From an uncultured Armatimonadetes bacterium (GTDB lineage Bacteria; Armatimonadota; UBA5829; DTJY01): a stretch of DNA of 64,000 nucleotides. The notes below the pieces were generated by a model, which was not told the DNA's origin, did no database searches, and saw only the letters and a list, made by a program, of their open reading frames with translations. Shown here piece after piece: positions 23,053 through 61,039 of this stretch. The stretch is from contig OY970325.1 in NCBI GenBank assembly GCA_963717145.1, forward strand, positions 5,184,001-5,248,000. The letters run 5' to 3'. The position numbers and the translations under genes were made by a program. How positions within the stretch are numbered: position 1 is the first letter of the stretch; the number at the start of each line of letters is the position of its first letter.

Positions 23053-23119
23053 TCTGTCATTCTGAGCGCAGCGAAGAATCCGGCCGGGCCAGATTCTTCG
23101 CTGCGCTCAGAATGACAGA
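23053..23119. repeat. REP-like 28-bp perfect inverted repeat (GTCAT-tagged)
   Basis: tctgtcattctgagcgcagcgaagaatc / gattcttcgctgcgctcagaatgacaga with 11-nt loop, in a divergent intergenic region. Confidence 0.9.
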
Positions 23120-37775: not shown

Positions 37776-37898
37776 CGCAGCCAAGATGTCCCCCTTACGA
37801 AGGGGGACCGGCCTCTGGGCCGAGGGGGTTTCCGCGTGTGGGTGCGCATACAAACCTCCCCCGGCCTGCTGGCCGGCCCCTCCTTCGTAAGGAGGGGC
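37776..37898 (-). mobile_element. Empty (MITE-like) copy of the DUF559 cassette ends
   Basis: 37784-37831 is the exact reverse complement of 42980-43027, and 37852-37898 of 42505-42551; only 20 nt lie between them. Confidence 0.8.
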
Positions 37899-38052
37899 GC
37901 AGACGGCTTCCGGGCCGAGGGGGTTGCCGCGCGCGGGTCCACGAAACGGAACCGCCAAGACGCCAAGGACGCCAAGCGAACCTCCCCCGGCCTGCTGGCC
38001 GGCCCCTCCTTCGTAAGGAGGGGCGCAGACGGCCTGCTGGCCGAGGAGGTTT
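37899..38052. repeat. Further copies of the cassette-end palindrome plus an ACGCCAAG tandem
   Basis: aacctcccccggcctgctggccggcccctccttcgtaaggaggggcgcagacggc repeated from 37979; ccgccaagacgccaaggacgccaag at 37952-37976. Confidence 0.85.
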
Positions 38053-38056
38053 CAAC

Positions 38057-40207
38057 ATGCGACAGATCGACTACAAGACATATCTCGACAAAGTGTACGG
38101 ATGCTGGATCGGCAAGTGCGTCGCCGGCACGATCGGCGCTCCCTATGAAGGCGCGAAGGAGCTGTTCGACTTCGAGTACGACCCGAAGCTGATCGAGAAG
38201 ATGCTCCCGAACGACGACCTCGACCTCCAGGTGCTCTGGCTGTCCGTCTTGGAAGAGAAAGGGATCGCCTTCACCTCCGACGACCTCGCCGATGCGTTCC
38301 TCAACAGGTGCAAGTACGCGCCCGGGGAGTACGCCTTCTTCAAGAAGAACTATGCCAGAGGCATCCATCCGCCGCTGAGTGGCGCGTACAACAACCGCTA
38401 CTACATCGAGGGAATGGGCTGCCCGATCCGCTCCGAGGTATGGGCCTGCATCGCTCCCGGCAACCCGCAACTCGCCGCCGAACTCGCGGCGAAGGACGGG
38501 GTGCTCGATCACGCGGGGAACTCGGTCTACGCCGAGCAGTTCCTCGCCGCACTCGAGGCCGCCGCGTTCTTCGAGAGCGACATCGGGAAGCTCGTCGAGA
38601 TCGGACTCAGTGTGATCCCCGAGGACTCGAAGATCGCCGGCCTGATCCGCGACGTCCGCGACTGGTGCCAGCTTGTGGGAGACGACTCGGGAGCGACTGT
38701 AGGGGCGTGCCTTGTGCCGCCTGTGACCGTCGACCAGGCGGCACAAGGCACGCCCCTACAGTCGCCTGTGACCGTCGACCAGGCGGCACAAGGCACGCCC
38801 CTACAGTCGCCTGCCGTAAGTGAGGACACCGGCGCTCCGGACTGGCGGTATGTCCGAAGCCAAATCCTGCGGAAGTACGGCCATCCGGACTGCACGAACA
38901 TGTACCAGAACATGGGGATCACGCTCCTGGCGCTCTTCCTGGGAAGGGACTTCCTCGACACGACCATGATGGCGCTCAACTGCGGGTTCGACACCGACTG
39001 CACCTGCGCGACCGCCGGCTCGGTGCTCGGCATCATCCAGGGCGCGGAGTACCTGAGCACGACGCACGAGTTCCCCGAGCAGCGCTTCAAGCTCGGAGTC
39101 GATGCGCCTCGCCGATCCGACCGCGTCCTCGATCTGGCCGAGGATACGTGCCTGATGGGCCTCCATTTCGCCGAGTACTTGAACAGGGATGTGGCGATCA
39201 TTGACGCGCCGAAGCCGCCTCAAATCGAGCGGCCGGAGTACGAAACGGTCAAGGTCTCGATCGATTACCAGGGAGTCCCGGCGATGGGCATCGGTGAGAC
39301 GCGAAAGATCAAGATTCTGTTTGACAACGAGCGCGTCAGCCCAGTCGGGATAGCGGTCTCCCTGACCGTCCCTGATGGCTGGGACGTATCCCCGACCTCC
39401 GCCGATCTGCTTCTCGATCCCGGCGTCAACTCCTGGGAGATCGAGGTGACCGTTCCGGCGGATATTCCGGTGCTGGATGAGCGGAACATGTTCGAGTTGG
39501 GATTCGATTCTTCCGCCGAGAGACCGGAAACCCCTCCCCAGCCCTCCCCGCAACGGAGAGGGAATCGCACTCTCTGCCCCCTCTCCGTTGCGGGGAGGGC
39601 TGGGGAGGGGTTTCCGGCTCGCTACCCATTCGGCATCGTCGGGGCGTCGGTGTGGGAAGTCTTCGGTCCATTCTGGCAGAACATCGGGCTCATCTCAGAG
39701 GGTACCAAGGACGAGATGGCGGATGTCGGCCGGATATACCACCTCAACACGCGCGTCGATCCCGACCGGGAGTACATGACGCTCGACGAGATTCTCGGGC
39801 CGAAGATCACCGGCGACGCGGCGAAGGAAGGGCAGGTCGTCTGCTTCGGCGAGGACCTGATGTCGATGTCGGACGCGGTCGGATTCCAGGGGCCGTGCGC
39901 GGTGTATATGGTGCGGCGGATGATCTCGCCGGAGGACCGAACGCTCGGGGTGCTCGTCGGCCATACGGACGCGTACAAGCTGTGGATCAATGGGGAACTG
40001 ATCAGCCGGCGGGACGACGTCGATTGGTGGACCGCCGAGAACGCGCACATCCACGGGGTGAAGATCAACAAGGGCGAGAACATGATCGTCCTGCAGATGA
40101 TCCGGCGCAGTTCCGAGGCGAAACTGAGCATCCTCTTCGTGAAGCGCGGCTCATGCTCCGAGCACTACTACGACTTCGCGTCGGTGAACCCGCGGCTCAG
40201 GGAGTAA
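38057..40207 (+). CDS. ADP-ribosylglycohydrolase-family protein with C-terminal extension and two repeat-derived inserts
   Basis: YLDKVYGCWIGKCVAGTIGAPYE, PNDDLD, MGCPIRSE, GFDTDCTCATAGS; ATG 38057 after GAGGAGG. Confidence 0.9.
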   Translation: MRQIDYKTYLDKVYGCWIGKCVAGTIGAPYEGAKELFDFEYDPKLIEKMLPNDDLDLQVLWLSVLEEKGIAFTSDDLADAFLNRCKYAPGEYAFFKKNYARGIHPPLSGAYNNRYYIEGMGCPIRSEVWACIAPGNPQLAAELAAKDGVLDHAGNSVYAEQFLAALEAAAFFESDIGKLVEIGLSVIPEDSKIAGLIRDVRDWCQLVGDDSGATVGACLVPPVTVDQAAQGTPLQSPVTVDQAAQGTPLQSPAVSEDTGAPDWRYVRSQILRKYGHPDCTNMYQNMGITLLALFLGRDFLDTTMMALNCGFDTDCTCATAGSVLGIIQGAEYLSTTHEFPEQRFKLGVDAPRRSDRVLDLAEDTCLMGLHFAEYLNRDVAIIDAPKPPQIERPEYETVKVSIDYQGVPAMGIGETRKIKILFDNERVSPVGIAVSLTVPDGWDVSPTSADLLLDPGVNSWEIEVTVPADIPVLDERNMFELGFDSSAERPETPPQPSPQRRGNRTLCPLSVAGRAGEGFPARYPFGIVGASVWEVFGPFWQNIGLISEGTKDEMADVGRIYHLNTRVDPDREYMTLDEILGPKITGDAAKEGQVVCFGEDLMSMSDAVGFQGPCAVYMVRRMISPEDRTLGVLVGHTDAYKLWINGELISRRDDVDWWTAENAHIHGVKINKGENMIVLQMIRRSSEAKLSILFVKRGSCSEHYYDFASVNPRLRE
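38693..38810. repeat. Intragenic GTAG-type REP doublet with 45-bp tandem duplication
   Basis: 31-bp arm 38693-38723 with inverted arms at 38735-38765 and 38780-38810; encodes PVTVDQAAQGTPLQS twice. Confidence 0.92.
39524..39617. repeat. Intragenic 39-bp perfect inverted repeat
   Basis: ccggaaacccctccccagccctccccgcaacggagaggg and its reverse complement, 16-nt loop. Confidence 0.92.
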
Positions 40208-40301
40208 GGGAGTGTGGGAGTATGGGAGTGTGGGGTATGGGAGTGTGGGAGTGTGGGAGTCCGGATCGCCCATACTCCCACACTCCCATACTCCCATACT
40301 C
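40208..40301. repeat. Inverted octamer arrays (GGGAGTRT / AYACTCCC) between convergent genes
   Basis: About 6 forward units, core ccggatcg, about 4 inverted units. Confidence 0.9.
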
Positions 40302-40306
40302 TGCTA

Positions 40307-41206
40307 CTACTCCTCGTCGCCTCTGCCAAAGATGCGGGTCAGGAGGCCTGGCTTCCGGGGACTCTCGACCTCCGCCGGCTCATCGTCCGGCCAGTGGAGA
40401 TCGTTCGCGGCTGCATTCAGTCGGCGGAAGAGATCGTCCGCGGATTCATCCTGCTCGGTCTTATCCATGGAGTCGGCCTCAGATTGCGGCTTCACAATTG
40501 TTACCTGGGCGATCTCGGGTTCAGCCTCAGAGGCGGAGCGCGTCTCTTCGACCACCTCGGCCTCAACAGCGACCACCTCCTCACCTCGGGCTGACCGGGT
40601 CTCCGTGGGTCGAACGTCCCCCAGTGACTCCATGACAGGGGCGGGAGCGTCCACCGTCTGGGCGGAAGTGGTCTGTGCACTCGGCATCTCGACCGGCTCG
40701 GCTTCGACGTGCATCTCGGGCTTCGGCGACTCGACCTGCGGCGGAGAGGTCACGGGCGTCGTGACCGCGGAGACCTCTTTGGTCGGATCAGCCATTACCG
40801 GCCCGCTCGTCGTCCGGAAAATCTCGTCCTGCATCTCGCCGGCAAGCTCGTGTGTCCGGTGAAAGAGGTCGTTCACCCTGGACATGGTCTCTTCCCACTC
40901 GGGAGTGCCGCCGTCTTCGTTCTCCTTGGGGGCAGGCAGCTCCTTCACCAGATGCGTGAACTCGGCGGAGAGCGCCAGGTTTGTGTCCTGCATCTGGTGG
41001 AGCACCGAACTGGCGCGATGGAGCATATAGTTCAACTCGCGCTGGCGTTGAAGTAGTTCGGAGGCGATGTGGTTCATCGAGGTCTCGCGAGTGCGGAAGT
41101 CCTCGACCTGCTGCTGGAGAAGCTTGCTCCGTTCGGCCAGAACAGCCTTGTGCTTGAGCGCTCTGAGCAGCTTGTCCTTCATGTTCTCGCTGAAATCTGG
41201 TGACAC
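40307..41206 (-). CDS. Hypothetical protein: N-terminal coiled coil, acidic disordered middle
   Basis: 299-aa ORF with heptad L/Q/E pattern; C-terminus RKPGLLTRIFGR may form an amphipathic helix. Confidence 0.75.
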   Translation of the reverse strand: MSPDFSENMKDKLLRALKHKAVLAERSKLLQQQVEDFRTRETSMNHIASELLQRQRELNYMLHRASSVLHQMQDTNLALSAEFTHLVKELPAPKENEDGGTPEWEETMSRVNDLFHRTHELAGEMQDEIFRTTSGPVMADPTKEVSAVTTPVTSPPQVESPKPEMHVEAEPVEMPSAQTTSAQTVDAPAPVMESLGDVRPTETRSARGEEVVAVEAEVVEETRSASEAEPEIAQVTIVKPQSEADSMDKTEQDESADDLFRRLNAAANDLHWPDDEPAEVESPRKPGLLTRIFGRGDEE

Positions 41207-41429
41207 GAATCATCCCTCGCTTGGTTCCCTGACGACTCCCGTCGTCGGGGATACTGGTACTTATACCAGGATTATCGGCGGTTTCGACGGCTTTTCTGAG
41301 GCGGCACTGCCAGTTCAAGTTTATCACCATTCTCGGAGGATGTAAACAAATGATGCCCGCCGACCCCTCATTCATCTCTACGCGTCACTCGGCCCAGGGG
41401 TTCCGGGTGAAGGAATCCGTCGTCCTGGA

Positions 41430-41515
41430 GGAGTATGGGAGTGTGGGAGAATGGGAGAATGGGAGTGTGGGAGTCCGGAACGCCCATACCCCCATTCTCC
41501 CACACCCCCATTCTC
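41430..41515. repeat. Second inverted octamer-array element
   Basis: GGGAGTRT/GGGAGAAT units with core gggagtccggaacgcccatac, nearly identical to the core at 40255. Confidence 0.9.
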
Positions 41516-41532
41516 TCCCCAGGAGGCATGCC

Positions 41533-42504
41533 ATGAAGAACCTCGCCAGGTTGCTGGTGATCCTTTCGATACTGACGCTCGTCGGGTGCAGCAAGCAGCC
41601 CAAACCATCCGGTCGCATCACGATCGCCGTCATCCCCAAGGGCACGATGCACGAGTTCTGGAAGACCGTCCATGCCGGCGCGGTCAAGGCATCGAAGGAA
41701 CTCGACGTAGATATCATCTGGAAAGGCCCGATGAAGGAGGACGACAGGGACGCCCAGATTGCGGTCGTCGAGGACTTCATCAGCAAGGGTGTCTCGGGCA
41801 TCGCGCTCGCCCCCCTCGACGACATGGCGCTCCGAGCACCGGTCGCCAATGCCACCAGGAGCGGCATCCCGGTCGTGATCTTCGACTCCGGCCTCCAGGG
41901 AAGCGACTTCATGAGCTTCGTCGCCACCGACAATCACAAGGGCGGACAGATCGCGGGCGACTATATGGCCAAGCTGCTCGGCGACAAGGGCAGCGTCATG
42001 ATGCTGCGGTACAACGAGGGATCGAACAGCACGATGCAGCGCGAGAAGGGCTTCCTCGATGCCATCGCCAGACATGCGGGCATCAAGGTCGTCAGTTCGA
42101 ACCAGTATGGCGGAGTGACCACTGAGAGCGCGTACAAGGCGGGCGAGAACCTGCTCTCCCGCTTCAAGGACGTTGACGGCATCTTCTGCCCGAACGAGTC
42201 GACCACCTTCGGCATGCTCCGCGCGCTTCAGGATGGCGGATATGCCGGCAAGGTGAAGTTCGTCGGCTTCGACGCGTCCCAGCAGCTCATCGACGGCATG
42301 AAGAAGGGGCAGATCGACGGTCTCGTGCTCCAGGACCCGATGTTCATGGGCTACATGGCGGTGAAAACCGTCGTCCAGAGCATCCGCGGCGCCCAGGTCG
42401 AGAATCGGATCGACACCGGCGCGAAACTCGTCACGCCTGAGAATATGGATACGCCCGAGATGAAGGCCCTCCTCCGCCCGGACCTCGACAAGTGGCTCAA
42501 GTAA
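41533..42504 (+). CDS. RbsB-like sugar ABC substrate-binding lipoprotein
   Basis: Lipobox LVGC; IPKGTMHEFW, FVATDN, VGFD, VLQDP; SD AGGAGG. Confidence 0.93.
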   Translation: MKNLARLLVILSILTLVGCSKQPKPSGRITIAVIPKGTMHEFWKTVHAGAVKASKELDVDIIWKGPMKEDDRDAQIAVVEDFISKGVSGIALAPLDDMALRAPVANATRSGIPVVIFDSGLQGSDFMSFVATDNHKGGQIAGDYMAKLLGDKGSVMMLRYNEGSNSTMQREKGFLDAIARHAGIKVVSSNQYGGVTTESAYKAGENLLSRFKDVDGIFCPNESTTFGMLRALQDGGYAGKVKFVGFDASQQLIDGMKKGQIDGLVLQDPMFMGYMAVKTVVQSIRGAQVENRIDTGAKLVTPENMDTPEMKALLRPDLDKWLK

Positions 42505-43035
42505 GCCCCTCCTTACGAAGGAGGGGCCGGCCAGCAGGCCGGGGGAGGTTTCCGGATGGGCTGCTGGATGCGCTGCCGCTTGCAGGGGGGTGGCCGGAGG
42601 AGGTTAGAGGCTTGACCGAGTTGTTCAACCGGAAGACGGTGACCGCCAGACGTCGAGCACTGCGCGCTATCATGCCCGAGCCGGAAGTCGTCCTGTGGTC
42701 CAAGTTGAAGGGCAGGCAGGTGGACGGCGTCAAGTTTCGCAGGCAGTACAGTGTCGGTCCGTACATCATCGACTTCTTCGCGCCAAAGGCCAAGCTTGCC
42801 ATAGAAGTGGATGGCGACACCCATTCTGCGGAGGGGGCTGGTGAGCGTGATAGACAGAGGCAAGCTTACATTGAGGGTTTTGGCATCCGTGTGCTTCGGT
42901 TCACAAACAGGGAGGTTCTGCGCAACTTAGACGGTGTGCTGGTGACGATACAACAAGCCATCTGCGAGGCCACGCCGGAAAACCCCCTCGGCCCAGAGGC
43001 CGGTCCCCCTTCGTAAGGGGGACATCTCGGTTGCG
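42505..43035 (+). mobile_element. Palindrome-flanked DUF559 endonuclease cassette inserted in the ABC operon
   Basis: Begins directly after the SBP stop. Left end gcccctccttacgaaggaggggc..., right end ...gtcccccttcgtaagggggac. Both ends recur at 37776-37898 without the gene. Confidence 0.7.
42612..43016 (+). CDS. DUF559 (Vsr-like PD-(D/E)xK) endonuclease
   Basis: RRRALR..PEVVLWSKLKGRQ..KFRRQYSVGPYIIDF..LAIEVDGDTH..D..R..VLRFTN; TTG after GGAGGAGG; stop lies within the right hairpin. Confidence 0.92.
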   Translation: MTELFNRKTVTARRRALRAIMPEPEVVLWSKLKGRQVDGVKFRRQYSVGPYIIDFFAPKAKLAIEVDGDTHSAEGAGERDRQRQAYIEGFGIRVLRFTNREVLRNLDGVLVTIQQAICEATPENPLGPEAGPPS

Positions 43036-43077
43036 CCAGGTTGTCTTGACATGGAGATTTCGCAGTCAGAGACCAGA

Positions 43078-44031
43078 ATGCGCGTCATGCTCACGTGGCT
43101 CAACCGGCTCGGGCCGGTGCTCGGGCTCGCGCTGGTCTACGGCCTGTTCGCGGCGCTCGCAGGTGAGAGCTTCACCGGCGTGCGGAATATGGAGACCATC
43201 GCGCGTCAGACCGCAGTCGTCGGGACCGCCGCGCTCGGGATGACGATGGTTATCATCGCCGGAGGGATCGATCTCTCGGTCGGCTCGATCATCGCGCTCA
43301 GCACAGTCACGATCGCCTCATGCCTTGCGAAGGGCTTCAGCCCGCTCACGGCCGCATTCGCCGGAATCATCGCAGGACTGATCTGCGGCCTCATCAACGG
43401 TTTCATCATCACCCGCTTGCGAGTCGTGCCGTTTATCGTCACGCTCGGCACGCTGCTCGCGGTTCGGGGCATCGCCAAAGGATTCGCCCACGAGCAGAAG
43501 GTGAACGCGCCGTGGACCTCGCTGAACGACCTGCTCGCCACTCTCCCTCCCGACAAGCACTGGATGATCGTCCCGCCGGGCGTATGGATCATGCTCATCA
43601 TGGCGGTCGGGGTGGCGGTGATGCTACGTTACTCGCGATTCGGCAGGCACGTCTTCGCGATCGGATCGAGCGAGCAGACCTCGAGGCTCTCGGGGATCGA
43701 TGTGCAGCGGATGAAGCTGATGGTCTATGCCGGGAGCGCCGCCTTCGCCGGGCTCGCTGGGTTGATGCAGTTCTCGCGCCTGACCGTCGGCGACCCGACC
43801 GCCGCGACGGGCCTCGAACTCGATATTATCGCCGCTGTCGTGATCGGCGGTGGGAGCCTTTCCGGCGGCGAGGGATCGGTGTTCGGGGCGTTGATCGGCG
43901 CGCTGATCATGACCGTCATCCGATCCGGATGCTCTCAGATAGGCCTCGAGAACTGGGTGCAGGAGATCATCACCGGCGGCATCATCGTCGTCGCGGTAGC
44001 CCTCGATCGCCTGCGCCACCGGGCGCGGTGA
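43078..44031 (+). CDS. RbsC-like sugar ABC permease
   Basis: GGIDLSVGS, VPFIVTLG, FGRHVFAIG, ELDIIAAVVIGGGSLSGGEGS; start uncertain (43051/43078/43087). Confidence 0.93.
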   Translation: MRVMLTWLNRLGPVLGLALVYGLFAALAGESFTGVRNMETIARQTAVVGTAALGMTMVIIAGGIDLSVGSIIALSTVTIASCLAKGFSPLTAAFAGIIAGLICGLINGFIITRLRVVPFIVTLGTLLAVRGIAKGFAHEQKVNAPWTSLNDLLATLPPDKHWMIVPPGVWIMLIMAVGVAVMLRYSRFGRHVFAIGSSEQTSRLSGIDVQRMKLMVYAGSAAFAGLAGLMQFSRLTVGDPTAATGLELDIIAAVVIGGGSLSGGEGSVFGALIGALIMTVIRSGCSQIGLENWVQEIITGGIIVVAVALDRLRHRAR

Positions 44032-46219: not shown

Positions 46220-48133
46220 TTGAAGACGACTGTTCTGCTGTCGGGCAATGAGGCGATCGCCCGAGGCGCATATGAGGCCGGTGTTCGGGTCGCCGCGGGT
46301 TACCCCGGCACCCCGAGCACCGAGATACTTGAGAACATCACCCAGTACGAGACGATCTACGCCGAGTGGTCGCCGAATGAGAAGGTTGCCCTCGAGGTCG
46401 CTCTCGGCGCTGCTCTCGGAGGCGCTCGGGCGCTCTGCACCATGAAGCACGTCGGCGTCAACGTCGCGTCCGACCCGCTGATGACCGCCTCGTACACCGG
46501 CATCAACCGTGGACTCGTGCTGGTGAGCGCCGACGACCCCGGCATGCACAGCTCCCAGAACGAACAGGACAACCGTCACTACGCCCGGTTCGCCAAGATC
46601 CCGATGCTCGAACCGGCCGACAGCCAGGAGTGCAGGGACTTCACCATCCGCGCCTTCGAGATCAGCGAAGCGTATGATACCCCGGTGCTGCTCCGAACGA
46701 CCACCCGCGTGAACCACGGGAAATCGACCGTCAGCCTCTCTGAGCCGCAGGAGCCGGTCTTCGGCAGGTTTGAGTGCAACCTTCAGAAATACGTGATGAT
46801 CCCCGCATACGCGATGAAGCGCCATGTGATCGTGGAGGAGCGGATGATCCGCCTGAGGGAGTTGTCCAACGCCTCCGGTGTCGCCATTGCCCGTAGTGGC
46901 CGTGCCTCTGTGCCGGCCTCCGAGATCACTGGCCGGCACAGAGGCACGGCCACTACGGGCAATGGCGACCTGCACCGCATCGAATGGGTCGACACGTCGA
47001 TCGGCGTGATCACCTCGGGGATCGCATACCAGTACGTCAGGGAGGTGCTCCCGGAGGCGTCGGTACTGAAGCTCGGGATGACCTATCCGCTGCCCGACCG
47101 CCTGATCCGCGAGTTCGCGTCGAAGGTCGAGAAGCTGTACGTCGTCGAGGAACTCGATCCGTTCCTGGAGGATCAGATCAAGGCGCTCGGAATCGAGGTC
47201 ATCGGCAAGGAGCGCTTCCCGATCATCGGCGAGCTGAACCCGAGGCTCGTCGCCGCTGGATTCGACTTGGGTAGGGGCGTGCCTTGTGCCGCCTGTGACG
47301 AGGTACCGGGCGGAGATGGACAGGCCACGGGCGGCACAAGGCACGCCCCTACAACCCAGCGGTTGGAGGGTGATATCCCCGGGCGGCCGCCGGTCCTCTG
47401 CCCGGGATGCCCTCACCGCGGGTTCTACCAGGTTCTGAAGAAGATGAAGGCCATCGTGACCGGCGACATCGGATGCTATACGCTCGGAGTGCTTCCGCCG
47501 CTCGAGGTAATGGACACCTGCATCTGCATGGGCGCATCGATCGGGACCGCGCTCGGCATGAAGCGCGCTCAGTCGCCCGACGACAAGCGCCCGGTCGTGG
47601 CGGTGATCGGCGACTCAACTTTCGTCCACTCCGGGATCACCGGCCTGATCGATGCCGTCTACAACGGCACGGCCGCGACGATATGCATCCTCGACAACTC
47701 CACGACCGCGATGACCGGCGGGCAGGAGCATCCGGCGTCGGGGAAGACGCTCATGGGCAGTCCGGCGCCGAAGCTCGATCTGGCGGCCCTCGCACGTGCG
47801 ATCGGTGTCGAGGACGTGCTGGTGGTCGATCCATACGATCTGGAGGCAGTCGAGAAGGCGCTCAGGTATGCGACCCGGACGGATAAGCCTTCGGTGATCA
47901 TTACGAACAGGCCGTGCGTGCTGAGAGACAGGTCGGAGAAGCCGCCGAAGTCCTCCATCGCGCTGGAAATGTGTACCGGCTGCCAGGTGTGCTTCCGGAT
48001 CGGATGCCCGGCGATGGAGTCGGTGGCGGTCGACGACAAGTTGCGCGCGCGGATCAACGCCAACCTGTGTCAGAGCTGTGGTGTCTGCATCCAGGTATGC
48101 CGCTTCGAGGCCATTGGGAGGCCGGAGGAATGA
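46220..48133 (+). CDS. iorA: Indolepyruvate:ferredoxin oxidoreductase alpha subunit with two repeat-derived inserts
   Basis: LSGNEAIARG, YPGTPSTE, MKHVGVNVA, RPPVLCPGCPH, GDIGCY, GDSTF, two C-terminal Fe-S Cys motifs; TTG start. Confidence 0.96.
   Translation: MKTTVLLSGNEAIARGAYEAGVRVAAGYPGTPSTEILENITQYETIYAEWSPNEKVALEVALGAALGGARALCTMKHVGVNVASDPLMTASYTGINRGLVLVSADDPGMHSSQNEQDNRHYARFAKIPMLEPADSQECRDFTIRAFEISEAYDTPVLLRTTTRVNHGKSTVSLSEPQEPVFGRFECNLQKYVMIPAYAMKRHVIVEERMIRLRELSNASGVAIARSGRASVPASEITGRHRGTATTGNGDLHRIEWVDTSIGVITSGIAYQYVREVLPEASVLKLGMTYPLPDRLIREFASKVEKLYVVEELDPFLEDQIKALGIEVIGKERFPIIGELNPRLVAAGFDLGRGVPCAACDEVPGGDGQATGGTRHAPTTQRLEGDIPGRPPVLCPGCPHRGFYQVLKKMKAIVTGDIGCYTLGVLPPLEVMDTCICMGASIGTALGMKRAQSPDDKRPVVAVIGDSTFVHSGITGLIDAVYNGTAATICILDNSTTAMTGGQEHPASGKTLMGSPAPKLDLAALARAIGVEDVLVVDPYDLEAVEKALRYATRTDKPSVIITNRPCVLRDRSEKPPKSSIALEMCTGCQVCFRIGCPAMESVAVDDKLRARINANLCQSCGVCIQVCRFEAIGRPEE
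46880..46969. repeat. Intragenic 39-bp perfect inverted repeat (GTAGTGGCCG family), 90 nt
   Basis: gtcgccattgcccgtagtggccgtgcctctgtgccggcc, 12-nt loop, exact reverse complement. Confidence 0.95.
47271..47352. repeat. Intragenic GTAG-type REP doublet (GTAGGGGCG family)
   Basis: gtaggggcgtgccttgtgccgcc ... ggcggcacaaggcacgcccctac. Confidence 0.93.
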
Positions 48134-59409: not shown

Positions 59410-59480
59410 CATGTAGTGGCCGCGCCTCCGTGCCGGCCACTGAGGTGGTAAGGCCGGCACAGAGGCACGGCCACTACATG
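59410..59480. repeat. Intergenic GTAGTGGCCG REP doublet
   Basis: catgtagtggccgcgcctccgtgccggcc / ggccggcacagaggcacggccactacatg; same family as the first iorA insert. Confidence 0.92.
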
Positions 59481-59648
59481 CTATTTCACATCCATTTTGC
59501 TCGAGGAGGTGATCTTACTGCACCTGAGCTTGGTTTCTATCTGATAAGGCGAAACAAGGACAGCCTTATCAGGTAGTGGCCGGTGAATGCCGGCATAGTA
59601 CGAGCGGATTTCGGTCCGCGATTCGAAAATACAGAGGAGGTAAGGAAA

Positions 59649-60896: not shown

Positions 60897-60905
60897 ATGC
60901 TGACA

Positions 60906-60970
60906 ATGTAGGGGCGTGCCTTGTGCCGCCCGTTGCCGCGTGTCGGGCGGCACAAGGCACGCCCCTACAT
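60906..60970. repeat. Intergenic GTAGGGGCG REP doublet
   Basis: atgtaggggcgtgccttgtgccgccc / gggcggcacaaggcacgcccctacat. Confidence 0.93.
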
Positions 60971-61039
60971 CGTGATTGGCGGTAGGACTTCCGACGCCCG
61001 AGGGCGAAGAATACCCCAGAGGCATCCGCGAAGATCACC

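Follow-up and report, generated by a model that had tools for sequence, protein, structure and literature searches.

How did a free-standing nuclease gene come to lie within a sugar-transport operon, and what are the two palindromic sequences that enclose it? The question is raised by a 64,000-nt stretch of DNA from an uncultured Armatimonadetes bacterium, which is called here the window (G000:C1:5184001-5248000, in the 5.37-Mb single-contig genome G000, 60.6% G+C). A 546-nt block formed by a left module (L), a stand-alone DUF559 gene and a right module (R) is located there between the gene of a sugar-binding protein of an ATP-binding cassette (ABC) transporter and the gene of the permease. 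This block is a foreign cassette inserted into the transporter operon, and the DUF559 gene with its hairpin flanks is a real, recurrent unit and not a chance neighbourhood. By their sequence, L and R are variants of the repeat class described as BoxC, PIT or TM(ECO). By analogy with RAYT and REPIN, we propose that DUF559 could be the cognate nuclease of these BoxC-type modules, the two forming a pair that would work by break and repair, and we consider the chances of this proposal to be about even. The cassette and its two neighbours are listed below in window coordinates.

41534 to 42504, + strand: sugar-binding protein of an ABC transporter (Peripla_BP_4), probable start ATG at 41534
42505 to 42551, + strand: L module, assigned to the BoxC/TM type, with a mini-hairpin in its second loop
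42552 to 42611, + strand: cassette leader, carrying a decayed inner module at about 42578-42603
42612 (TTG) to 43014-43016 (TAA), + strand: stand-alone DUF559 (YcjD-like) nuclease gene, 134 aa, Pfam PF04480
42980 to 43027, + strand: R module, imperfect reverse complement of L
43051 to 44031, + strand: ABC-transporter permease (BPD_transp_2), directly 3' of the sugar-binding-protein gene in relatives

L (from 42505) begins one base after the stop codon TAA of the sugar-binding-protein gene (42502-42504). It is formed by hairpin A, CCCCTCCTT/AAGGAGGGG (42506-42526, 9-bp stem), followed by a 16-nt mini-hairpin (42527-42542) and by the purine tract GGGGGAGGTTT, which is the mirror of the purine arm of L. 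R runs from the pyrimidine tract AAACCCCCTC through a mini-hairpin (42989-43002) to hairpin B, GTCCCCCTT/AAGGGGGAC (43003-43023, 9-bp stem), and ends in the tail ACATCT; its reverse complement aligned with L over 48 columns, with mismatches. R provides the last ~12 codons of the DUF559 gene and its stop codon, which is placed by fold prediction at the boundary between the loop and the 3' arm of the R hairpin. The decayed inner module of the leader is older and lies just 5' of the DUF559 start; its GGAGGAGG, 8 nt before the TTG, is likely to serve as the Shine-Dalgarno sequence of the gene. The intact L sits 60 nt farther out. Folding was computed with ViennaRNA on single-stranded DNA, considering hairpins only, and 200 dinucleotide shuffles of each sequence were used as control. 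The predicted energies were -17.1 kcal/mol for L, -15.9 for R and -41.8 for a gene-less L-to-R doublet described below (z = -6.8 for the doublet), and none of the 200 shuffles folded as well in any of the three cases (0/200 for each). A previous sequence-only reading of this DNA had described a DUF559 gene with related palindromic ends between a sugar-binding protein and a permease, with the cassette starting right after the first stop codon and the nuclease stop lying inside the right hairpin, and the arrangement was confirmed in all these respects; the gene product matched PF04480 with 102.9 bits (cut-off 20.6, E=1.1e-29).

The foreign origin of the block is concluded because the junction between sugar-binding protein and permease is uninterrupted in relatives and because the third-position G+C content (GC3) of the gene departs from that of its neighbours. 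In 8/8 relatives with an orthologous sugar-binding protein (60-88% identity) the permease follows directly, and GC3 was 70% in the DUF559 core vs 88% and 85% in the two neighbouring genes. Two inverted modules around a gene could also be recombination sites that flip the DUF559 segment, as in phase variation, and within an operon the orientation of such a segment would decide read-through. In the accessible portion of a survey of predicted programmed inversions, "DUF559 domain-containing protein" was enriched among the coding sequences concerned (odds ratio 14.3, corrected P 3.2e-5; PMC9881135), although this enrichment may only mirror the flanking inverted repeats that were used as predictor. 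The arms here are short and, given the mismatches between L and the reverse complement of R, imperfect. No invertase gene was seen beside the cassette, where no search aimed at invertases was made, and no inverted joint at the cassette appeared in metagenome contigs, which come from the repeats of other organisms. We consider inversion improbable.

The ends, which the sequence-only reading had described as related palindromes of a candidate non-canonical element pair, do not represent a novel type of palindrome; they are BoxC/PIT/TM intrastrand-triplex repeats as these are described in the accessible portion of PMC4666352 (Holder et al., 2015). According to the same source, BoxC, the PIT element and TM(ECO) are one element, of which K-12 has 23 copies; their stems are conserved, their loops vary, and there are five inverted doublets, always of one subtype A and one subtype B unit. 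In vitro the motif adopts a purine-motif intrastrand triplex; it is multicopy in >260 genomes, and cyanobacteria are among its carriers along with E. coli (PMC4666352). As far as that portion of the survey goes, no gene class was linked to the repeats and mobility functions were never found near the motif, and the main text contains 0 occurrences each of "ycjD" and "endonuclease" (PMC4666352).

L and R fit the BoxC/TM definition because their third tract mirrors the purine arm. In L, the class II purine motif is given by CCCCTCC / GGAGGGG followed by GGGGGAGG, which is the purine arm read backwards; in R it is found on the G-rich strand, as CCCCC / GGGGG followed by AGGGGG. By analogy with the characterised motif, one strand of L or R could form either a hairpin or an intrastrand triplex. 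BoxC was reportedly first described near envM/fabI in 1992. As in BoxC/PIT/TM, the copies are dispersed and mostly intergenic (a placement read here for the L and R copies in the window), stems are conserved and loops variable, and inverted doublets join two subtypes, with 20 L-to-R doublets in this genome. Unlike the known repeats, L and R have an additional mini-hairpin of 14-16 nt, placed after the purine arm and before the third tract, and many of their doublets have a 45-58-nt spacer with CTTGGCG heptads. The flanks of homologous loci share a common form, namely a pyrimidine arm joined by a loop to a purine arm and, 2-3 nt farther on, a mirror purine tract, as in CCCTCTCCC-loop-GGGAGAGGG-TTA-GGGTGAGGG.

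Two other identities were considered for the modules. A known RNA family was rejected, the Rfam scan of nine loci having given only sub-threshold matches to Whalefall-1 and, on the palindromes, chance-level matches to miRNA models. A G-quadruplex reading was not adopted; the canonical modules have four G-runs and L and R do not. As a separate observation, the TM modules of three homologous loci (L009, L010, L011) scored 20.9-27.1 bits against Whalefall-1 (RF01762), whose gathering score is 37, and this orphan "RNA motif" could itself be a DNA repeat of the BoxC type.

The same two ends were said by the sequence-only reading to occur inverted at 37776-37898 around a 20-nt spacer, and they were found there with the units at 37784-37898. 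This region, 4.6 kb from the cassette, holds the following features.

37784 to 37898, - strand: gene-less L-to-R doublet, or empty copy, with L at 37852-37898, a 20-nt spacer at 37832-37851 and R at 37784-37831
37899 to 38051, - strand: adjoining units of the same array, with a truncated R-like piece at ~37904-37925, a spacer with CTTGGCG heptads at ~37926-37978, a second L at 37979-38024 and a partial R-like piece at 38030-38051

The ends of the empty copy are identical to those of the cassette over 47/47 positions of L and 48/48 of R, in inverted orientation. The whole of 37776-38051 is thus a small array, in which the empty copy has beside it two truncated R-like pieces and one more L (37979-38024). 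A genome-wide count with blastn-short, in which units had to be aligned over at least 28 nt, gave 25 L and 57 R units, many of the R units being solitary or placed behind variant L units. In 20 cases an L is followed by an R on the same strand, and the DUF559 copy is the only one of these doublets with a gene (gap 411 nt). The gaps of the 19 gene-less doublets measured 9, 9, 9, 9, 11, 11, 11, 12, 20, 21, 41, 51, 51, 52, 56, 57, 100, 108 and 242 nt; the gene-less elements come in a long (~150 nt) and a short (~100 nt) form. Over 46 nt, 16/20 doublets have identical L arms. Among the short spacers, all eight that were compared differ from each other (8/8), and the long ones (45-58 nt) have CTTGGCG heptads in common. 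L-DUF559-R is therefore the single gene-carrying member of a family of gene-less doublets and single units. Part of the claim of a filled and an empty element stood in this way, as the flanks are dispersed with many gene-less copies; the empty copy at 37784-37898 is however not special, being one of 19 gene-less doublets, and it shares only its ends with the cassette. Its derivation from the cassette by deletion was rejected, since the doublet spacers are unlike the cassette interior save for a few bases beside R, and the gene-less elements are accordingly not simple deletion products of the cassette. At the doublet borders no consistent target-site duplication was found; TCT is frequent at both borders and absent at single R units and at the cassette, a pattern that leaves duplication unproven.

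Some further details of the L/R family were noted. In 10/20 doublets the long spacer has two or three CTTGGCG heptads and then GTTCC, and may be a protein-binding iteron or a third type of module. Three R copies (G000:C1:3267930-3267990, 3825860-3825930 and 380161-380248) carry a 35-nt two-hairpin insert within the mini-hairpin, with CAGAGGC on both sides, which could be 7 nt duplicated by a nested insertion or else a duplication by slippage. The public sequencing runs covered at best a 0.08 share of the locus, and their metagenome contigs (4 runs) represent repeats of other organisms and are no test of this site. Contigs from soil and sediment (runs X1, X2 and X4) carry near-identical L and R units (corresponding to window 42505-42556 and 42980-43027), joined through 12-22 other letters, and leave the DUF559 gene body uncovered; such joints indicate that the L/R family lives in other organisms of those samples.

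The association of gene and modules was then followed through other phyla. The homologue scan used one genome per species and gave 544 confirmed relatives, from which the 80 best loci were retained, with 40-57% protein identity and labels of Cyanobacteria, Nitrospinota, Nitrospirota, Bacteroidota, Chloroflexota, Patescibacteria groups and Alpha- and Gammaproteobacteria. Modules were searched with a strict TM-module detector, which misses even L and R. It found 144 modules in the 38,578 nt that lie no more than 200 nt from the gene ends vs 19 in the remaining 384,268 nt of the 80 loci, that is, 3.73 vs 0.049 per kb. Enrichment of the palindrome next to DUF559 genes, on which the sequence-only reading depended, was therefore ~75-fold. 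An adjacent module was present at 71/80 loci (on both sides in 32, upstream only in 21, downstream only in 18) and absent at nine. When the upstream flank was compared with the reverse complement of the downstream flank, a score of at least 30 was reached at 36/77 loci and in 0/66 windows shifted 1200 nt outward; among flank pairs taken across loci it was reached in 13/77, with a generic motif in common. All 12 of the loci fetched from relatives (12/12) had hairpins upstream of the DUF559 gene, most of them also at the stop codon or behind it. The two ends are different hairpin subtypes in many of the 80 loci, as in the A+B doublets of E. coli, and a Chloroflexota-labelled homologue with 52% protein identity has the same hairpin pair, hairpin B being identical over 19/19 positions. 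It could be argued that this genome is crowded with palindromic repeat families and that a small gene in it has acquired one unit on each side by chance. However, we estimate that 82 L/R units at a few dozen places in 5.4 Mb would hardly hit both flanks, and the arrangement recurs with the frequency and local enrichment just given and is found again in E. coli; chance is a very improbable explanation.

At four loci (L002, L003, L013 and L019) the upstream purine tract has the sequence GGAGG and is placed 6-8 nt ahead of the start codon, so that it doubles as a ribosome-binding site. In Nitrospinota the modules are reversed, with their tracts outside, and module orientation relative to the gene is thus not fixed. 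One Nitrospinales chromosome has two cassettes 1.6 Mb apart which are 98% identical over 492 nt, the similarity stopping at the module edges; the left module of these cassettes is broken by nested insertions, and a nearby remnant consists of the last 118 nt of the gene and its module. Considering the ribosome-binding role, the modules might instead be functional parts of a transferred nuclease gene (ribosome-binding sites, mRNA ends, insulators or autoregulatory sites) whose product has another role, such as repair, defence or the resolving of non-B DNA, the dispersed copies being relics or independent. A purine tract that acts as Shine-Dalgarno sequence and a stop codon within the downstream module agree with this, as does the persistence of BoxC in E. 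coli without ycjD. The accessible portion of PMC4666352 also reports earlier work in which PIT elements showed neither promoter nor terminator activity and lacked mobility genes in their vicinity. In Nitrospinota, however, the pyrimidine tract comes first and the purine tract cannot be the ribosome-binding site, and the 25 L and 57 R gene-less units would be left unexplained, together with the way in which module load follows the gene within genera. We regard this explanation as unlikely.

Module load was determined in 41 relatives, including G000, with the canonical module pattern; the reversed-pattern control gave 0 everywhere. The 14 genomes with a stand-alone DUF559 gene had 0, 0, 5, 13, 14, 17, 17, 33, 39, 40, 44, 70, 94 and 697 modules (median 25), and the 27 genomes without it had 0 (18 genomes), 1, 1, 2, 4, 5, 6, 8, 8 and 28 (median 0). 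At least five modules were present in 12/14 genomes with the gene vs 5/27 without it (Mann-Whitney p=1.3e-5; Fisher, for at least five modules, p=5e-5; the genomes are kin and not independent, so these p-values overstate the effect). In the two DUF559-positive genomes with 0 modules the DUF559 matches are weak or interrupted. The contrasts within genera are more telling than the pooled p-values. In genus g16 two genomes have gene and modules and three have neither, in g18 one genome has both and two have neither, and in g15 the gene-bearing genome has 14 modules and the two gene-less ones have 2 and 4.

A RAYT enzyme was also considered as mobiliser of L and R. The genome has eight RAYT-like genes (matches to the Y1 transposase family PF01797), and in the 16-mer multiplicity map of their flanks neither L nor R flanks any of them (0/8), repeated sequence of another kind being present beside 7/8; this candidate was rejected. 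Two other palindromic families occur in the window, the TGTAGGGGCGTGCCTTGTGCCGCC type and the GTAGTGGCCGTGCCTC type (38693-38810, 47270-47353 and 60903-60973; 46880-46969 and 59410-59484), and repeats of these types also flank two of the RAYT-like genes (G000:C1:827021-827575 and 3783755-3784330). The claim that DUF559 spreads its own flanks in the manner of RAYT was accordingly sustained in that the unit is recurrent, the module load follows the gene and the RAYT genes lack L and R; it was weakened by repeat families without a cognate gene and by module-bearing genomes without a stand-alone DUF559.

The N-terminal TELFNRK of the protein agrees with the conserved start of its homologues. Its closest structure was PDB 3HRL (N. 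gonorrhoeae NGO0050), with E=1.3e-17 for the single sequence and 6.5e-35 with a nine-homologue profile; the same profile gave E=0.0014 for I-Bth0305I (PDB 3R3P). In a Foldseek search with the AlphaFold model (predicted local distance difference test, pLDDT, 78.5) the matches were 3HRL (1.4e-7), 3R3P (2.6e-5, TM score 0.82 on the target), and then PvuRts1I and Vsr (1CW0 4.8e-3, 1VSR 1.3e-2). The modelled protein has a Vsr-like fold, in agreement with the sequence-only reading. D54, E65, D67 and H71 are invariant in 9/9 aligned homologues including this protein, and their assignment as catalytic residues is made by analogy. E. coli YcjD and NGO0050 belong to the same Pfam family, PF04480, and neither has an assigned function. 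I-Bth0305I, which has a Vsr-like catalytic domain and is a homing endonuclease encoded in a mobile intron, offers a precedent, being a nuclease of the Vsr fold that furthers its own spread by means of DNA breaks which the host repairs. Unlike I-Bth0305I, the DUF559 gene here is free-standing, outside any intron or conserved host gene, and is flanked by dispersed repeats, not by halves of a unique target; the sequence similarity between the two proteins is marginal.

This likeness brings in a further explanation, in which the modules spread by other means (replication slippage, recombination or another enzyme) and a selfish, homing-like DUF559 gene enters the spacers of existing doublets, the arms serving as repair homology. 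The gene is central in an inverted doublet in both geometries, with the tracts inside as here or outside as in Nitrospinota, the nearest characterised structural relative is a homing endonuclease, empty doublets are abundant, and both the orphan repeat families and the gene-less genomes would fit an independent spread of modules. On the other hand, only 1/20 doublets is occupied, the spacers range from 9 to 242 nt and the eight short ones are all different, so no fixed target is visible, and the upstream module and the ribosome-binding site are fused, with a fixed spacing, in several phyla, which suggests that the module travels with the gene. A homing-like entry of the gene seems to us a minority possibility, though a real one.

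E. coli offers the same partners in a well-studied genome. In K-12 a hairpin lies across the stop codon of ycjD, followed by a partial duplicate of the gene's 3' end and by a canonical BoxC towards fabI. The sapF-ycjD-BoxC-fabI arrangement was found, with at least 80% query coverage, in 3346/5426 complete E. coli genomes. Unlike the DUF559 cassette of the window, E. coli ycjD has as upstream flank a different palindrome, which is not BoxC. One genome without the ycjD block has the eef efflux operon in its place, and no BoxC was read there in the spacer adjoining fabI. According to the accessible portion of PMC12817139, phylogroups A, B1 and C have ycjD "in place of" eefRABCD, as do, separately, ST69 and ST182. 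Strict BoxC matches numbered 2 and 5 in chromosomes without ycjD vs 8, 6 and 6 in chromosomes with it, a comparison of five chromosomes that is phylogenetically confounded.

Some minor observations belong to these loci. The duplicate in K-12 corresponds to the last ~60 nt of ycjD and lies between stop hairpin and BoxC (L093 5200-5430, ycjD-fabI). The palindrome upstream of K-12 ycjD (CACCTCATTCTGACAA...) is perfect; the Nitrospinales cassettes (L042, L043) have a related CAGAATGACA palindrome nested in them, and a similar one is present in the window at 23053-23119. In E. coli USMARC-51688 an inverted pair of CTGTCTCTTGATCAG-type sequences takes the place of the interior of a BoxC doublet at lldD-trmL (L111, ~425-470). 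The sequences of this pair resemble the inside end of IS50.

From the anatomy, the copy numbers, the operon insertion, the association across phyla, the co-occurrence and the predicted fold, we infer how recognition, cleavage and spread might proceed if DUF559 is the nuclease of the modules. The protein would recognise the folded module, and as a Mg-dependent nuclease of the Vsr fold it would nick or cut there. Host repair or replication would then copy, join, delete or re-insert modules, and the gene would persist as a cassette with a module of each subtype at its ends. Break and repair is preferred to transposase chemistry because identical arms have differing junctions, the E. coli alleles are ragged and no target duplication was seen; the instability published for TM sites was counted as fitting it as well.

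Several results weigh against a nuclease that spreads these modules. The gene is present in only 1/20 L-to-R doublets, the cassette interior is unrelated to the doublet spacers, and consistent target-site duplications are missing at the doublet borders. The position of the intact L, 60 nt outside the decayed module, indicates that modules may accumulate beside the gene instead of travelling with it. At least two further canonical TM families have no gene inside: with the strict pattern the canonical motif has 39 copies in this genome (reversed-pattern control 0), mostly of two other families in inverted doublets, one of which lies in the window at 39524-39617. The genome has two DUF559 genes, and the second (G000:C1:890870-891205; region 890816-891270) is flanked by 21-nt inverted repeats, rich in G-runs (TTACTGGGTGGGTGG... 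type), that are unique and not a dispersed family, having just a 10-12-nt core in common with a palindrome family of ~10 loci. Among relatives, kinship inflates the co-occurrence p-values, and the five gene-less genomes out of 27 that carry 5-28 modules contain, by Pfam search, a DUF559 domain only at the end of ~1730-aa (helicase-fused) proteins in two of them and none in three. E. coli chromosomes without ycjD retain BoxC, and the filled and empty BoxC alleles of E. coli (ilvC-ppiC, lldD-trmL) show ragged replacement with exchanged flanks, not clean insertion. Finally, no strand-transfer chemistry is known for nucleases of the PD-(D/E)XK type, to whose Vsr-like branch DUF559 belongs.

By comparison with known systems, the cassette resembles REP/REPIN-RAYT in having a single-copy enzyme gene between inverted short palindromic repeats that are dispersed as singlets and doublets, and in that the repeat type differs between gene copies. 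It differs in its enzyme, a nuclease of predicted Vsr fold and not an HUH/Y1 transposase, and in its triplex-type repeats. REP repeats carry a GTAG-type head, which L and R lack. It is also similar to the pairing of terminal-inverted-repeat (TIR) transposons with miniature inverted-repeat transposable elements (MITEs), because a gene-carrying element and many short gene-less ones share only their inverted ends; unlike these, it has no DDE or other known transposase, its only gene being the nuclease, it shows no consistent target-site duplication, and its single ends are numerous alone.

Hundreds of bacterial genomes contain BoxC/PIT/TM repeats, a class known since the 1990s for which no function, origin or associated protein has been reported, and DUF559 is a large family lacking an assigned role. 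The link between them, consistent both physically and phyletically, gives the repeat and the enzyme each a testable partner, including in E. coli K-12. Both are known separately; the link itself was not found in print in open full-text searches, which mostly left aside subscription journals. This genome adds a setting where the RAYT/REP and DUF559/TM systems can be distinguished side by side, a module variant with a mini-hairpin, contrasts of co-occurrence within genera and a clean insertion at an operon junction. If the nuclease acts on the repeats, the two would be a second enzyme-plus-repeat system beside RAYT/REPIN, with a bearing on the origin of small structured repeats, on rearrangement hotspots and possibly on structure-specific DNA tools. 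A broader proposal, which we find rather doubtful, is that stand-alone DUF559/YcjD proteins are the long-missing, structure-specific Vsr-fold enzymes of BoxC/triplex repeats in general, and that they generate, copy and remove modules by way of repair induced by nicks or breaks. If this were true, a REP/RAYT-like system of different chemistry would extend across bacterial phyla and be present in E. coli K-12, and it would be explained how this repeat family arose and why genomic instability is reported at its sites.

Other features of this repeat-rich genome were seen in passing. A 91-nt palindrome (891815-891905) is located ~600 nt 3' of the second DUF559 gene and belongs to a family of ~10 loci whose arms contain GGGTGGGCGGGCGGG. 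In the window, a 789-aa frame (37838-40207) with an ADP-ribosylglycohydrolase domain stays open across the REP doublet at 38693-38810 and the TM doublet at 39524-39617, and the REP doublet falls within the Pfam match of that domain (aa 88-404); the repeats may be in-frame insertions, or the frame may be over-extended. A minus-strand 299-aa open reading frame (40307-41206) with no Pfam match is flanked by two large tandem-octamer hairpins, GGGAGTGT and variants with their complements, at window 40201-40310 and 41422-41524.

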